Of a DNA stretch of 20,000 bases, positions 2,171-13,336 are shown piece after piece. The stretch covers positions 5,451,005 to 5,471,004 of the forward strand of contig NC_057719.1 of the NCBI RefSeq assembly GCF_004010195.1. Reading direction: 5' to 3'. How positions within the stretch are numbered: the stretch's first letter is position 1; each line of letters opens with the position of its first letter. The stretch is from Chiloscyllium plagiosum (lineage: Eukaryota). The notes beneath the pieces are model-generated. The model made no database searches. It was not told where the DNA came from and was given only the letters and a program-made list of their open reading frames with translations. Position numbers and translations under genes: made by a program.

Positions 2171-3843
2171 TGTGCGGAGAAAGACATGGAAGATATAGAA
2201 TGTGGGGAAATAGATGGTAACATCTTGAAAAATGTCCATATTACAGAGGAGGAGATGTTATACGTCTTAAAACACATAAAAGTGAATAAATCCCCAGGAC
2301 TTGATCAGGTGTACCCTGGAACTCTGTGGGAAGCTAGGGAAGTGATTGATAGGCCCCTTGTCGAGATATTTGTATCAGCAACAGTCAAAGGTGAGGTGCC
2401 AGAAGACTGGAGATCGGATAGCGTGGTACCACTATTTAAGAAGTGTGGTAAGGAAAAGCCAGGAAACTAGACCAGTGAGCCTGACATCATTGGTGGGCAA
2501 TTTGTTGGAGGGAATCCTGAGTGACAGGATTTAAATACATTTGGAAAGGCAAGGACTGATTAGGGATAGTCAGCACAACTTTGCGCATGGGAAATCATGT
2601 CTCACAAACTTGACTGAGTTTTTTTGAAGAAGTAACAAAGAGGATTGATGAGGGCGGAGCAGTGGATGTGATAATATATGGATTTTGGTAACACGTTCAT
2701 AAGATTCCTCATGGTAGACTGGTTAGCAAGGTTAGATCTCATTGAATACAGGGCAAATTAGCCATTTGGAAATAAAACTGGCTTGAAGGTAAAAGACAGA
2801 GGCTGGTGGTGGAGGGTGGCTTTTCAGATTGGAGGACTGTGACCAGTGGTGTGCCACAAGGATTGGTGCTGGGTCCACTGCTTTTTGTCATTCATATAAA
2901 TGATTTAGGTGTGAGCATAGGAGGTATAGTGAGTAAGTTTGCAGATGAAACCAAAATTGGAGGTGTAGTGGACAGCGAAGAAGAAGGTTACCTCAAATAT
3001 ACAATGGGATTTTGATCAGATGGGCCAATGGGCTGTGGAGAGGCAGATGGAGTTCAATTTAGATAAATATTAGGTGCTGCATTTTGGAAAAGCAAATCAG
3101 AGTGGGTCTAATACATGTAATGGTAAAGTCCTGGGGAGTGTTGCTGAACAAAGAGACCTTGGAGTGTAGGTTCATAGTTCCTTGAAAGTGGAGTTGCAGG
3201 TAGATAGGATAGTGAAGACGGTCTTTGGTATACTTTCCTTTATTGGACATAGCATTGAATACAGAAGTTGGGAGGTCATGTAGCTGCTGTTAAGTCACAT
3301 ATGGAATACTGCATGCAAATCTGGTCTCCCTTCTATCGGAAAGATGTTGTGAAACTTGAAAGAGTTCAGAAAAAATTTACAAGGATTTTGCCAAGGTTGG
3401 AGGATTTCAGGTACAGGGAGAGGCTGAATAGGCTGTTTCTCTGGAATGTCAAAGGCTGAGTGGTGACCTGATAGAGGTTTATAAAATCATAAGGGGCATG
3501 GTTTGGGAAAATAGATAAGTTCTTTTCCCTGGTGTAGGGGAGTCCAGAAGTAGAGGGCATAGGTTTAGGGTGAGAGGGGAAAAAATTAAAAGGGACCTAA
3601 GGGGCAATTTTTTCATGCAGAGGGTGGTGCATGTATGGAATGAGCTGGCAGAGGAAGTGGTGGAGGCAGGGACAATTACAATATTTAAAAAGCATCTGGA
3701 TGGGTATATGAATAGGAAGGGTTTCGAAGGATATGGACCAAGTGCTGACAAATGGGATTAGATTGGGTTAGGATACCTGGTCAGCACGGACGAGTTGGAC
3801 TGAAGGGTCTGTTTCCGGGCTGTACATCTCTATGACTCTATGG
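2171..3843 (+). mobile_element. 5'-truncated CR1 (HER1-type) LINE: RT region and 3' end, inactivated
   Basis: Translated motifs [76 protein letters not shown] are spread over frameshifted ORFs. Ends in a ctctatgactctatg tail. Confidence 0.95.
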
Positions 3844-3984
3844 CATGTCGACAAAAAAGTTGCACATAAATTGTACCTAGAGGGCATGGAGACTGACCAC
3901 CTTCGTAGCAATTCTTATGGCAACATTGTGACCAATCCAGGTCTACCTGTCTTGTCTGAGGTTAATCACCTAAGATTCTCAGTT

Positions 3985-4193
3985 GAGAAGAAAGTGAGGT
4001 CTGCAGATGCTGGAGATCAGAGATGGAAATGCGTTGCTGGAAAAGCACAGCAGGTCAGGCAGCATCTAGGGAACAGGAGAATCGACGTTTCGGGCATTAG
4101 CCCTTCAGAAGGGCTAATGCCCAAAACGTCGATTCTCCTGTTCCCTAGATGCTGCCTGACCTGCTGCGCTTTTCCAGCAACGCATTTCCATCT
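3985..4193 (-). mobile_element. Penelope-like pLTR fold-back insertion (36-bp tail plus 173-bp palindrome) with TSD
   Basis: Arms 4021-4106 and 4108-4193 are reverse complements with 2 mismatches. The direct repeat ctaagattctcagtt flanks it at 3970-3984 and 4192-4206. Confidence 0.85.
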
Positions 4194-4569
4194 AAGATTC
4201 TCAGTTAACAGATCCACCTTTCTCCTCAGCTAAAAATTCCCCTTGTAAGCCAGTCTGATCCATTTCCCTCATTTCTGCCCCCAAAACTTTCTCTTCGCAT
4301 CCACAATAATGGTAGGGTCCCCCTCGTCCTCACTTTCCACTGCATCAGCATCTGAAGGATCATAAGCCATAATTTCTGCTATCTTCAGTGGGATGCCACC
4401 ATTGGACACATGTTCACCTCCCTTGCCAGCATTCCACAGAGACAGTTGTTTCCGGGACATCCTGGTCCTTACTTCCTCAACTCCCAATACCACCCCAAAC
4501 CACCTTCACGTGCAGATGCGAAATGTGAAACACTTCGCCATTTACTTCCTCCCTCCTCACCATCTGAGG

Positions 4570-5306
4570 TGAAGTGGGAGATGGCACAGGGCAGGGTGAC
4601 AATAGGCACACGGACACACAAGATGGCACTGAGCCATAAGTTGTCCACTTGACACACAAGACGACTGCCTGACCACAATATGGAGAGAGACAGCAGAGCA
4701 AACACAGATACTGCCTGGGCCACAAGGATGCCAGCACATTGCCCTCACAACCTAGTTGATTAGTTTAAGGTGGGCGGGGGGGAGAATACACATGAATAGC
4801 ATATATTGCCTGCTGAAGTGTCTGGGTCCAGCCAACACTTTTGATAGAAATGCTAACTGCTTGATACAGACTCAATGCAAAGCGCTAATAGCTGCAGTAA
4901 TCATCCTTCTCAGGAAGAGCGATTAGTACCCATTACCACAGTAATGGACTTCCGCGCACACATTGAAATTGACAATGTCTGCACTGAAATTTATAAGGAC
5001 CGCGCTGACATTAACAAAGGCTGTGTTGGAACTGACAATGACTGCACCAATACTATCAACGATTCTGCAGTGTTTACAATCAACAAACTATGTTACAAAG
5101 ACCATAACCTCATCACTGACCTATTATATTACAAAACGTGCAAAAGTATCTTGACATGTGCTCTGGGTGGAGAGAGGACTCGCAGCTGGCCACTGTGCTG
5201 TTAGTGTCTCTCTCTCTCTCCTCTGAACTCCAGTATTTCAATATACAATAAACCCTGTCTTTGAACCCAGACTCTGACTCAGAGGCTGGTGATTTTCCCC
5301 ACAACA
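4570..5306 (+). mobile_element. Solo LTR (737 bp)
   Basis: TG...CA termini with an imperfect inverted repeat (tgaagtggga / ccccacaaca), 4-bp TSD gagg (4566-4569 and 5307-5310) and AATAAA at 5247-5252. Removing it restores continuous Penelope sequence catctgaggctccagacac. Confidence 0.8.
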
Positions 5307-5880
5307 GAGGCTCCAGACACACACTCCAGATGAAGCAGCAATTTACCTGCACACCCATTCAATCTAGTCTACTATATTCATTGCTCACAATGTGGTCTCC
5401 TCGTCACTGGGGAAAGTAACCACAGGCTGGTGTCCACTTTGCAGAACACCTACATTCTGTCCGCAAAAATGATGCTGAGCTTCCAGTTAAACAGCAACTT
5501 TAACACACTGTGTTTCTTGGCCGACAGTTCTGTCCTACACCGGCTGCAGTGCTCCAGCAAAGCTTAGCAAAAGCTGGAAGAACAGCACCTTATTTTCCGT
5601 TTGGAGACCCTGCACCCTGTCAAACTCAATAATTATAGTTCCTGAACATCATTTTCCATGTGCTTTACCTAACCCCACATTCTAGGCACTATCATCACAT
5701 GGGCTGCTTTCAGCACAGCCAGCCTGACTCACTGACCTCATTAATAGCTTGTCTTTCTGCCTGGCTTACCATTATCCATCCATTCATTTGCCTAACTGTC
5801 TTTATCTTCCTCTGCACTTACTGCTTATTCATTTTTACCTCCCTCGTATTCAGCATATATACCTCTCCTAACCTACTACT

Positions 5881-5918
5881 AATTCTGAAGAAGAGTCATT
5901 AGACTTGAAAGGTTAGCT
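5881..5918 (+). ncRNA. Degenerate Penelope-type minimal hammerhead ribozyme motif
   Basis: CTGAAGA (5885-5891), A, stem II GAGTC-atta-GACTT, GAAA (5907-5910), then GGTT. The stem III palindrome and stem I are damaged. Confidence 0.55.
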
Positions 5919-6237
5919 TTTTTTCCCCCCACAGATACTGTTGGGTTTCTTCAGCAATTTCTGTCTTTATTAAGAGATTTTGCTGCATCTCCATACCAAC
6001 CAGGGTCCGATCCAACAGCATCCTCATTTCATGCTATATCAGTTAGTTGTGCCTTCTTTTAAAACTTGCTGTGTCCCAGTCTTGGTGAGTGCAAGATAAA
6101 CCTTCAACTTCACATTGCTTTAAAATAAAATGTGTGAGCTCTGTTCTATCAAATAATTGCTTGGTCACCGAGTCTCTACCATACAGAAAGGCAGTCATCC
6201 CGTCTGGACAGCAGCTTTTGCATTCCCCCCTTTTCTC

Positions 6238-6349
6238 ATAGAATCCCCAATGTGAAAAGAGGCCCTTTGGTCCAACAAGTCCATACCGACCCTCTGAAGA
6301 GTATCCCACCCAAACCCACTCCCCACTACCCTATTACTCTACATTTACA
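6238..6349 (-). mobile_element. 3' fragment of an HE1-like SINE (tail shared with the HER1/CR1 LINE)
   Basis: Minus strand reads gtaaatgtagagtaatagggtag...ctcttcagagggtcggtatggacttgttggaccaaagggcc...gggattctat; its end is similar to the CR1 tail at ~3790-3840. Confidence 0.7.
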
Positions 6350-6591
6350 CCGACCCCCCGGGTCCTCAAAAAAACTCGCCTGGAAGATAGCATTTTTGAC
6401 AGGGCTGCATTCCCCCTTTCTTCCTTGGACTCGAGTTGCCAACCTTTTTGGTATTTATCCCAACACTAACGTCCACTCTCCTTTCAGACGTCAGTTATGG
6501 AGGTGCTGGGAGGAGTAGGGAAGATTTAGGAATCACTGTCGCACCCTCCCCCCTGTAAAATAGTGCCTTTTTAAATAGAGGATGGTCGCAC

Positions 6592-6720
6592 CTCCGAATT
6601 CTGCGCCTTCGTCAAAAGAGCGGCGGACAACACTGAGGTAACCTTCACGCGCTCATGCAGCGCGAAAGAGGACAGCTCCGTACTAACCAACCTACCAACC
6701 GACCAACCGAACCTGATGGC
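6592..6720 (-). other. Candidate first (non-coding) exon of the minus-strand transcript
   Basis: GC-rich sequence just downstream (on -) of the ETS/GC-box cluster, with donor GGAG|gtgcga. Contains a mini-uORF ATG AGC GCG TGA. The TSS is not determinable and alternative donors (~6640, ~6693) exist. Confidence 0.4.
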
Positions 6721-7138
6721 CGGAACTGACGCCCCTTCCCGCCTGCCGGAGGCGGGGTCAGAGTGATCGACATCGCCAAAGAACAAATGGTGGCGCAGAA
6801 ATAGGAAGACACACCCACGTAGGGTTTGACAGCCAGCCAATGAGGGGCCCGTGTGGGCAGGGTATATCTCCATCTGTCATGTTTGGTTGAGGAATAAGTG
6901 TTGGGGGGTGGGAGGAGTGGGAGAGAGTAGTAGTAACAGTCAGTGGGAGGGGAGATTGCTGTCTTGTGTGGAGATTATTTAAAAAAAACAGAAAATCTCT
7001 CTCCATGTATGTTAACAACATTTAAAGAGGACACCGTGGGGGTGGGTGGGGGGGGAATAGCTTCGTATTTAACAACTAGTTTTTAAAAAAAAAATAATAA
7101 AAGGTGCTAGGAGTTTGTGGGAGATTTTTGTTTGAAAT

Positions 7139-7196
7139 ATGGAAGAAGGGTCCAGTGAAGGTGACATGTTTACAGTTGAGCACGAGCTGAAGAACG
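7139..7196 (+). CDS. Putative first coding exon of an unidentified gene: MEEGSSEGDMFTVEHELKN + 1 nt (phase 1)
   Basis: ATG at 7139 in strong Kozak context (A at -3, G at +4), 19 open codons, and a strong donor ACG|gtaaga inside the CpG island. No in-frame exon 2 was found in the window. Confidence 0.65.
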
Positions 7197-7450
7197 GTAA
7201 GAGCGCGAGCCCGAACCCGGGTGCGAGTACTCGTAGCCGGGCTGGGGGTGGGGGGAGAAGCGCGATCCCGTGGTCGTGAAGAAGATGGGGGTGGGAGGAT
7301 CGGTTTGGGGATTTGGAGATGTGGGGGGCGGAGGTGAAAGCGCGATCCCGCTGCCCTGAAAGGGGTGTAAGGCCAATAGGGGGAGCGCGATCGAGTTGGG
7401 AGCGCGGGGCCCCTTCGGTCGTCGCCACTCTTGTGTATTCCTCCCACCTT

Positions 7451-7467
7451 CCCCCCCCCCCCCCCCC
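7451..7467. repeat. (C)17 homopolymer
   Basis: Directly visible. Confidence 0.95.
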
Positions 7468-8769
7468 ATCAACCCCATTCATGTTTCGAGCGCGATCCCG
7501 GCAGCGTCAGCCTGATCTGGATGCGCGCTCCCTGGTCTGCCTCTGCATTTCCCCCCGCCCCCCATAACAGGATTGAAATCCAGAGCATTGCACCCCCGTG
7601 CATCATAGGATTGGCGGTTTAGAAAATAATATTAATGGTGGCAAGTGCAACTGTGGTGACCCAGTGCATTCAATATTCCACACATCCCTTCTGCAGTGGA
7701 CACAGAAGTTTGCCAATGCAAACATAATTTGCATCGTTTGAAATGAATGCGGTCTGGGACGCTTGCTTGAAAATAAATTGAAATTTATTTGCTTTGCAAT
7801 TGATGGGTGAATGTTTCAATTTAGGTCGCCGTTTTAAGGCTGAAACTGTGACCTGTATTGAATGCCACTGCTGCACTTTGGACAATTGTATATGTTATTT
7901 TTGTCCGTTTAAAAATAATGTTTGCAACTGTGGGTTTGTTGTGAACCTTCAGTTGCAATTTGGTCTTCTCTGTCTCAGATGCTCAGTTGCATTAAAAGTC
8001 GTGGGAACTGTCCTGCGCAGGAGTATTCTGCTAATGCTTTTCTATTTGGGTAATCTTTCCGGGGGTGGAGAAGGAAAATACGCAGTTGTTCTTACTACTG
8101 GGATTAATAATTATGGATCTCAAAGGTATTTGCAAATTTTTACTGCACCCCCTGCGCTCCCCAGTTGGACTTCTTGTTGCTGTTGTGTGGAGTTATCAAC
8201 CGTGTTCGATTTACAGCCTGCTAATGCACGCTTTCTGGCAACTAACGAATATGTTTATTTTTGGTGATAGAATGTATGTTCATGCGATCTATCTATATAT
8301 GTTGCATGCCTAAGAATTATGTTAGATGTCCTTTATTAACTTTATTATGAAACGATATCACGTTTTTAAAAGAAAACTAGGTGAACAGATTTTTTTGTGG
8401 GAACAGATGAACTCAATACGCATCTGCAAGAGGACCGATATTTTATCATCAGCTATCTGAAAGGCCTTATATATTCCCGTTTGTCGCAGTTAAAACTGGT
8501 TTCTTTTTGGAAGAGAAAACCTATTGCATTTTAGCAAAGCTGTAAAATAAGTGGGAGGGTACGAGAGTTAGACTGAACAGTGATGGACACGATGTAGTAG
8601 AAGTTAACACCTCCAGTGATGCCATGCATTAGACCAGGCCCAGTTATCTCACACTTTTACATTATTATTATTTTTGTTGGCCAAAAATATACTCTTATAG
8701 TGTATTCCGATTTCTTTGAGTGTCACACTTCATTGTTATGTTTCGTAGGACTTTGCTATGAAAGCCTTT

Positions 8770-9140
8770 TTATTGCGATCTGTGCATGATCTTTGAGACA
8801 TTCCATAAATTTACAGCCAATGAAATACAATCGAAGTATAGCAACTTTTGCAGTTTAAGAAACACAATTGATGTTAAACAACAATGCCTCTCAGTAACCA
8901 ATAATGGCACTCCTATGCTTTGAAATATTGGATATGTATAGGCTCTATGAGAATGTTCCACTCAAAGTAGAGTTGTGGGATTTTTTAACTTAAGGATAGG
9001 TAAGGTCTCACTCTAATGTCTCATCCAAAAAATTTTATGTCTGACAGAATAGAAATGTCAGTCCAGATTTTGCGTTGATTTTGGCTTGAACCTATGACCT
9101 TTAATTGAAAGTGAATATACCACATTAGTACTAAGCAGAT
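8770..9140 (-). mobile_element. DeuSINE (SacSINE1-like), highly decayed
   Basis: tttacagccaatgaaatac, taatgtctcatccaaaa, tgtcagtccagattttgcg and cttgaacctatgacctt match the antisense SINE blocks in the expected order. Confidence 0.55.
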
Positions 9141-9576
9141 TTTGAAGGCATGGAATATCAGTTGTGAAACAAAAAAGATGTATCATTTGTTTTGGGAATT
9201 GTAGTGAGTTGATGCTGAGGCACAATGGCCCATAATTTAATGTAAAAACAGCAAGAACAAAGTGTGGGACAAGAGCTTTCAACCACAAGTTTATTTCTAT
9301 CCAGATTAAACATGAGTGATGCTTTACGTTATGCTACCTGACACAGGATGTCAGTATTTTTGCCACCCTTCATCCTTCTGACAATCTCATAAAACATTAG
9401 TAAATTCAAAGAAGCATGTTAGTGGTTAGCAACTATACACACTTTATCAAATCTTTAAGCATAATCATAGTTATTGAACAAGTATTACGCTAATCTTTTG
9501 TGATGCTAAAAAGTTGCTCTTCAGTTTTGAATTTGTTATGTAATATTGAGGTCTTGTGGTGCAATAAGTAGTATTT

Positions 9577-13230: not shown

Positions 13231-13336
13231 ATCACCTGATGAAGGAGTAGTGCTTCGAAAGCTAGTGCTTCCAATATAAAACTGTTGCACAATAACCTGG
13301 TGTTTTGTGATTTTTAACTTTGTACACCCCAGTCCA
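13231..13336 (+). mobile_element. Penelope-like pLTR fragment (~106 bp) inserted in the CR1 RT region
   Basis: Interrupts ccacactacca|aggatcttacc. Carries a hammerhead core and a ...ccccagtccaacaccggcacctccaaatca end recalled from shark PLE termini. Confidence 0.8.
13233..13267 (+). ncRNA. Minimal type I hammerhead ribozyme motif (Penelope type)
   Basis: CAC-CTGATGA-A-GGAG(tagtg)CTTC-GAAA-GCTA-GTG: intact core, 4-bp stem II, palindromic AGCT stem III, CUA cleavage triplet (13262-13264) and a 3-bp stem I (CAC/GTG). Confidence 0.7.

Follow-up and report, generated by a model that had tools for sequence, protein, structure and literature searches.

A probable Penelope-like insert whose palindrome is centred within the predicted hammerhead core of its source family

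Introduction

How does a near-perfect palindrome come to carry an unpaired tail on one side only, between two copies of a short direct repeat, and does such an insert belong to a family of mobile hairpins or does it record a single accident of integration? The locus examined here, which lies within a 20,000-nt stretch of DNA (the window), raises both questions. An initial annotation of the sequence had described it as a young palindrome derived from a Penelope-like element (PLE), inserted as one unit and possibly representing a MITE-like family. In our assessment, it most likely records one recent integration, dead on arrival, of the 3' end module from an endonuclease-bearing PLE, during which the palindrome was formed. 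The evidence for this view comes from the anatomy of the insert, the structure of its abundant source family and the state of the target site in independent sequence data.

Results

Four of 24 listed sequencing runs were compared with the locus: X2 and X6, which stem from two studies of the organism matching the window (organism A), X9, which stems from a relative (organism B), and X21, which consists of RNA reads from organism A. The query, 3845-4122, comprised the left flank, the target site duplication (TSD), the tail, the left arm and 15 bases beyond the centre, and was matched at 85% likeness.

Base-by-base inspection bore out the anatomy of the initial annotation, namely 86-bp arms, a one-nucleotide centre and two CpG-type mismatches (Table 1). 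Of the 86 arm positions on either side of A4107, 84 are paired, pairing ends at 4020/4194, and the palindrome is the longest inverted repeat among 156 pairs in the window. Both mismatches (4091 C/4123 A and 4047 A/4167 C) fall inside CpG dinucleotides, of which the arm has five (chance 0.012), and the divergence between the arms amounts to 2.3% (95% range 0.3-8.4%); at the mirror place 4091, the left-arm letter is found in 86-93% of family depth. A4107 matches core base A7 of the right arm on the plus strand and therefore need not be a non-templated spacer. The longest direct repeat flanking the palindrome has 15 nt, and since it shares its first 2 nt with the right arm, the TSD length is given as 13-15 nt, exactly as annotated; a flanking repeat of 13 nt would be expected by chance at 2e-5 with 30 x 30 offsets allowed. 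The tail has no mirror counterpart in the right arm. Its annotated length of 36 bp stands, with the refinement that only 32 nt match the family: the window letter at 3988 occurs in 3-11% of family depth, loose ends cluster before 3989, and the outer 4 nt of the tail may be a variant or an addition.

Table 1. Features of the palindromic insert and candidate exons in its neighbourhood (positions in the window)
Feature	Position	Strand	Basis
Left TSD copy, 15 nt, AT-rich, contains ATT	3970..3984	+	Base-by-base check; X2, X6 and X9 flank contigs agree up to exactly 3984
One-sided tail extension, 36 nt	3985..4020	-	3989-4020 matches the family; 3985-3988 deviates
Left arm, Penelope-like end module, from predicted hammerhead core base G8 (4106)	4021..4106	-	Base-by-base check and family contigs
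Left-arm parts: stem II; GAAA box; predicted cut site	4103-4092; 4091-4088; 4084/4083	-	
Centre base A4107	4107..4107	.	Base-by-base check and family contigs
Right arm, same end module without tail; G12 replaced by A at 4123	4108..4193	+	Base-by-base check
Right TSD copy, 15 nt	4192..4206	+	Base-by-base check
Candidate first coding exon	from ATG at about 6772	-	Sequence
Candidate first coding exon, ends in GTAAG donor	7139-7197	+	Sequence

The query aligned with 39,824 (X2), 41,867 (X6) and 35,467 (X9) contigs and with 2,868 reads (X21), nearly all of them on 3985-4107. Judged by these alignments, the arm forms the end of a repeat family of great abundance. Beyond 4106/4107, 471, 489 and 472 contigs, together with 417 reads, continue with TTCAGGAATGAG, after which agreement is lost (among the matches listed, 24 of 720 rows). 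In all four runs, the TTCAGG behind 4106 in family copies completes a CUGAAGA core on the minus strand, and the minus strand of the family reads as a minimal hammerhead, consisting of this core, an extra base, stem II, the GAAA box, a palindromic ACGU and a predicted cut site. Arm bases are numbered here after the account of the minimal hammerhead in PMC4209133 and the general hammerhead scheme. The fold point of the palindrome cuts through the predicted core of this family motif, with the left arm beginning at G8 and the right arm at A7, a feature that the initial annotation had overlooked, although its reading of the palindrome as Penelope-derived holds with regard to origin. C3-A6 is missing from both arms, as is the 5' strand of stem I, and the right arm also lacks G12. 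With the fold point inside the core and G12 lost from the right arm, neither arm is therefore a predicted ribozyme. An active minimal hammerhead has the complete core C3-A9, G12-A15.1 and U16.1-H17 together with helix I, which the palindrome does not contain, and a descriptor scan for the minimal motif returned only 5885 and 13236 in the window and none in the palindrome. Ribozyme cleavage as the origin of the fold point was considered and rejected, as the predicted cut site lies 23 nt from the centre.

Metazoan PLEs have been reported to carry the same minimal hammerhead motif in their pLTRs (PMC4209133). The hammerhead-bearing end module, the one-sided tail and the TSD together support a Penelope-like origin, and it is from the end module that we infer the PLE identity of the insert. 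Protein and HMMER searches, for which segments of the older element described below served as queries, found no intact ORF linked to the end module; one of these protein queries was a minus-strand frame, the wrong strand for that element, and is uninformative. Pattern scans of viral contigs, metagenomes and prokaryote genomes returned 0 loci, which is expected for an animal repeat and neutral as evidence.

The family also has two preferred ends. Loose ends accumulate before 3989 in all four runs, and those before 4027-4035 hold family letters back to about 4020-4026 only, by our own reading of low-agreement consensus rows. The ratio of tail depth to arm depth is 0.41 (X2), 0.43 (X6), 0.35 (X9) and 0.56 (X21), rough values given that summed contig depth is not copy number; tail depth below arm depth is what two preferred ends would lead one to expect. 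The outer ends of the insert match the tailed and the tail-less ends of the family, respectively.

Regarding the target site, one contig in each of the three DNA runs agrees with the unique flank 3845-3984 and no further, extending beyond 3984 by 392 (X2), 171 (X6) and 351 (X9) letters, and the break coincides with the last base of the left TSD copy. From this break, judged from the left flank, we infer an empty site in both samples of organism A and in organism B, with the caveat that contigs can drop an allele. Over 140 flank bases, these contigs carry no substitutions in X2 and X6 and five in X9. All three have 3 nt (AAG) behind 3856 that the window does not, and the absence of AAG at 3856-3857 reads as a derived deletion on the insert-bearing haplotype. 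Most likely, the insert arose after the split from organism B and is missing from some, if not all, organism A chromosomes, or else the window comes from a close sister population. The annotated young age is supported by this apparently empty site in all three DNA runs, and insertion as one unit is supported as well. Additional low-depth contigs cover 3930-3975 in all three DNA runs, which places the target site within a low-copy older repeat.

The window consists of animal DNA, presumably from a cartilaginous fish, and is rich in repeats. To the left, what we take to be a LINE 3' end lies about 130 bp away, and the frame 2776-3012 matches RVT_1 below the curated cut-off. To the right, an older plus-strand PLE of another family appears, by our own reading, to occupy about 4250-4569 and 5307-5990, with 4263-4433 presumably included in its left part. 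The segment 5334-5465 resembles clusters with 12-15% GIY-YIG members, a lead only; sequence searches gave no match. A minimal hammerhead motif lies 3' of this GIY-YIG-like piece at 5885-5914. This older element is no more like the insert arm than shuffled sequences are. What looks like a solo LTR splits the older element at 4570-5306; this 737-bp insert starts with TG, ends with CA, lies between two copies of GAGG and contains AATAAA at 5247. Inside it, a 21-nt tandem array (4964-5047) sits within a 115-aa open frame that has no Pfam match. A third minimal hammerhead motif, at 13236-13264, belongs to yet another end module.

It is plausible that the insert lies in a minus-strand intron. A CpG island at 6501-7500 is possibly a bidirectional promoter, with a candidate first coding exon on either strand, and a transcript from about 6772 would cross the insert 2.5 kb away. 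As regards host-gene exons, none of 64 frames matched Pfam (64 of 110 listed frames, from 1-2100 and 5900-9350), and there was no RNA run among the 20 listed holders of words from 3500-4700. In the X21 RNA (2 in 100 read), 0 reads fell on 3845-3974; the animal sampled may not carry the insert. Family-wide X21 reads over 4017-4099 lean to the read direction of A-to-I editing at 7/7 places for T>C and 4/7 for A>G (11/14, p = 0.057; counted over 37 of 40 listed rows, with 3 flank rows left out and 40 of 78 rows listed). At 4088 and 4089, within the GAAA box, T>C reaches 9-11% in X21 RNA versus <1% in DNA. These observations are suggestive of A-to-I editing of family transcripts in general, as distinct from this copy; other changes are equally strand-biased, and single expressed loci could explain the pattern.

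The minus strand of the palindrome folds at -178.3 kcal/mol, compared with -61.4 +/- 4.7 for 200 shuffles (z = -25; 0/200 equally stable). The predicted fold of this strand is a stem of 85 bp without interruption, since the two mismatches turn into G-U pairs, whereas in plus-strand RNA both stay A-C. The palindrome would form this stem if transcribed; the initial annotation proposed that such RNA may be a substrate of ADAR or Dicer and that the DNA may form a cruciform. Among 13 Rfam matches, 10 were to miRNA models, none reached the gathering score and none was to a hammerhead. A miRNA reading was rejected, since the matches lie far under the gathering score and are due to the hairpin. Two frames that cross the palindrome, of 153 aa and 70 aa, were taken as chance, the 153-aa frame having no Pfam match. 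We ascribe no function of its own to the insert.

Discussion

The current study finds the insert to be, very probably, a one-off product of PLE insertion, formed through two-strand priming or fold-back. A competing reading is a small non-autonomous hairpin family, in which the palindrome would have been made once elsewhere and then copied as a unit by PLE machinery, and PLE proteins can mobilise other sequence between pLTRs in trans (PMC3846280). Some family sequence does cross the centre: depth at 4115-4122 amounts to 1001 (X2), 96 (X6) and 43 (X9) flank-depth units, and 69, 35 and 37 contigs extend over an end of the query, with at most 68 (X2), 34 (X6) and 36 (X9) reaching over its right end. 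Copies with a similar centre may number in the tens, whether because a repeat-prone spot gave rise to it more than once or because they form a small family. However, depth past the centre is only 0.40% (X2), 0.029% (X6), 0.026% (X9) and 0.17% (X21) of that at 4095-4104, so that the upper limits for a hairpin family are 0.03-0.4% of family depth and 0.08-0.17% of the contigs aligned. The hundreds of contigs and reads with loose ends past 4106/4107 described above, among the matches listed, enter the normal core instead. Equally, the 13 strand-switch joints among the rows listed (15 of 23; 2 skips) all differ in their coordinates and are each carried by 1-2 contigs per run at a depth of 12-39; some may conceal unaligned letters, and they indicate variety rather than exact fold points. 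There is no second copy of the 122-nt unit in the 20,000-nt window, both hammerheads are broken, and the start sites would be buried in the 85-bp stem. The idea of the initial annotation, a MITE-like family sharing this fold point, is thus unsupported. Nor does the insert have terminal inverted repeats on both sides and a short TSD of the transposase type, as the 36-nt tail lies outside the left arm and the TSD has 13-15 nt. We consider a hairpin family improbable. We likewise give a slim chance to the corollary that a hammerhead-less palindrome with a fixed centre, copied by PLE proteins, constitutes a retro-mobilised analogue of MITEs beside many one-off stubs, with the flank-depth units across the centre in two organisms being its copies. 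If true, such a fixed-centre family would be a new sort of non-autonomous retroelement; a literature search, with most subscription journals and Repbase/Dfam outside it, found neither a report of such small stubs nor one of a palindromic non-autonomous PLE family. The doubt as to whether the palindrome is an assembly or sequencing fold-back artefact can be addressed with the same data. The filled allele is seen in the window only, with no contig joining flank to tail among the 24 matches listed of 118,504, and the highest share of words from 3500-4700 in any of 20 listed holders is 0.72. Against this, the 15-nt duplication ends where independent contigs break, the tail is one-sided, the two CpG-type arm differences are unlike read fold-back, and the window lacks the 3 nt behind 3856 that all three DNA runs have, which identifies it as another haplotype. 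An artefact is in our judgement barely credible, and we regard the insert as genuine.

If the insert is a one-off product, the remaining issue is how its two arms were made, and here we lean towards priming from both target strands. A PLE protein would cleave both strands of the target 13-15 nt apart. The 3' end of the top strand, after 3984, would prime cDNA on element RNA at an outer start site to yield tail plus arm, while the 3' end of the bottom strand would prime at an inner start site over 2 nt of homology to yield an arm without tail. Both cDNAs would halt at the hammerhead core and then join head to head; a join over AG/CT followed by the loss of one TTC unit would produce the observed centre from family sequence, which is one possible path. 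The sequence after each target 3' end is antisense to hammerhead-sense RNA, as for cDNA, with tail plus arm on the top strand and the arm alone on the bottom strand. The Anolis Poseidon protein provides a precedent: in vitro it cuts and extends both target strands with a preference for ATT, it starts at two sites bounding the tail, and it has been modelled as a dimer (PMC11167929). The arms themselves present a difficulty for this route. At the variable family places 4023, 4026, 4032, 4067, 4069 and 4098, the window letter is present in both arms at 6/6 checked, including 4032, where it occurs in only 2.5-4.3% of family DNA depth. This identity, together with arm ends that agree to within 1 nt, counts against two independent cDNAs, which would have to stem from one template molecule or source locus, whereas copying of one arm from the other explains it at once. 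Such copying is the essence of the fold-back alternative, in which a single cDNA primed at the tail end would fold back or switch template at the hammerhead core and copy itself to the tail boundary; endonuclease resolution at that boundary and a join to the target over 2 nt of homology would complete the insertion, and tip loss or later correction would leave the one-base centre. A simple hairpin loop needs at least 3 nt, and fold-back from such a loop is disfavoured because a one-base centre is too tight. Moreover, the family sequence beyond 4106 (TTCAGG...) would demand a slip of at least 3 nt to give this centre, from a loop without a paired primer end. Published interpretations can be found on either side: Arkhipova et al. 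interpret palindromes at inverted PLE junctions as self-priming (PMC3846280) and Craig et al. attribute the tail to endonuclease resolution (PMC8557442), whereas the in vitro work places the tail between two reverse transcription start sites (PMC11167929). Taken together, we hold fold-back to be a possible, albeit doubtful, origin, and two-strand priming to be the somewhat probable one.

By itself, the insert matters little, being one among very many stubs. Its value lies rather in being a clean natural record of how PLEs make inverted-plus-tail insertions. As a young and apparently polymorphic copy with its junctions, TSD and centre intact, it can be scored along with others for two-strand priming versus fold-back, and it is also a possible presence/absence marker.

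When compared with known systems, the insert most closely parallels the endonuclease-bearing (EN+) PLEs of the Penelope/Poseidon and Neptune groups. Their published insertions feature inverted pLTRs, junction palindromes, TSDs of 8-10 bp and, on a single end, a tail of 30-40 bp (Arkhipova et al. 2013, PMC3846280; Craig et al. 2021, PMC8557442). The insert is likewise arranged head to head, with a junction palindrome, a one-sided tail of that length, a TSD and 5' truncation of its inverted copy; a family hammerhead and what appears to be a single copy at an empty site complete the likeness. It differs from the elements described in those reports in having no ORF or direct pLTR between the arms, in that both copies are reduced to 86-122 nt, and in a TSD of 13-15 nt, the rotifer examples having 8-10. 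With Poseidon of Anolis carolinensis, as described by Frangieh et al. 2024 (PMC11167929), it shares a tail of 30-40 nt between two ends, a hammerhead just upstream and ATT in the target. The distance from the tail end of the insert to an ATG close to stem II is 109-113 nt, and the start region of Anolis Poseidon lies 111-118 nt into the ORF; however, the ATG frame of the insert stops after 26 codons, its predicted cut site is 14 nt from the ATG rather than 26 nt, and the main-text description in that paper does not include inverted products.

The source family shares with the minimal hammerheads of metazoan PLEs, as portrayed by Cervera and De la Pena 2014 (PMC4209133), the core and the extra base between 9 and 10.1; in both, stem II opens with a G-C pair and helix III is replaced by a palindromic ACGU. 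Unlike those motifs, both arms of the insert have lost parts of core and stem I, and the right arm has lost G12 as well; pairs of hammerheads on opposite strands, 100-700 bp apart, are already published in the same report. Non-LTR retrozymes (bioRxiv 10.64898/2026.07.22.740005) are similarly short, non-coding, derived from PLE pLTRs and hammerhead-related, but in the available description their units are head-to-tail tandems with complete type I motifs, whereas the insert is head to head with broken motifs, and no tandem array was found at it. Short length, hairpin formation and a TSD recall MITEs, from which the insert departs in its non-terminal inverted repeat on the left, its long TSD, its retroelement end and the scatter of related joints in place of a uniform family. 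The insert is, in our view, the known inverted-plus-tail pattern of PLE insertion in minimal form and not a new kind of element; what is new at this locus is the apparently empty site together with a centre that falls inside the predicted hammerhead core.
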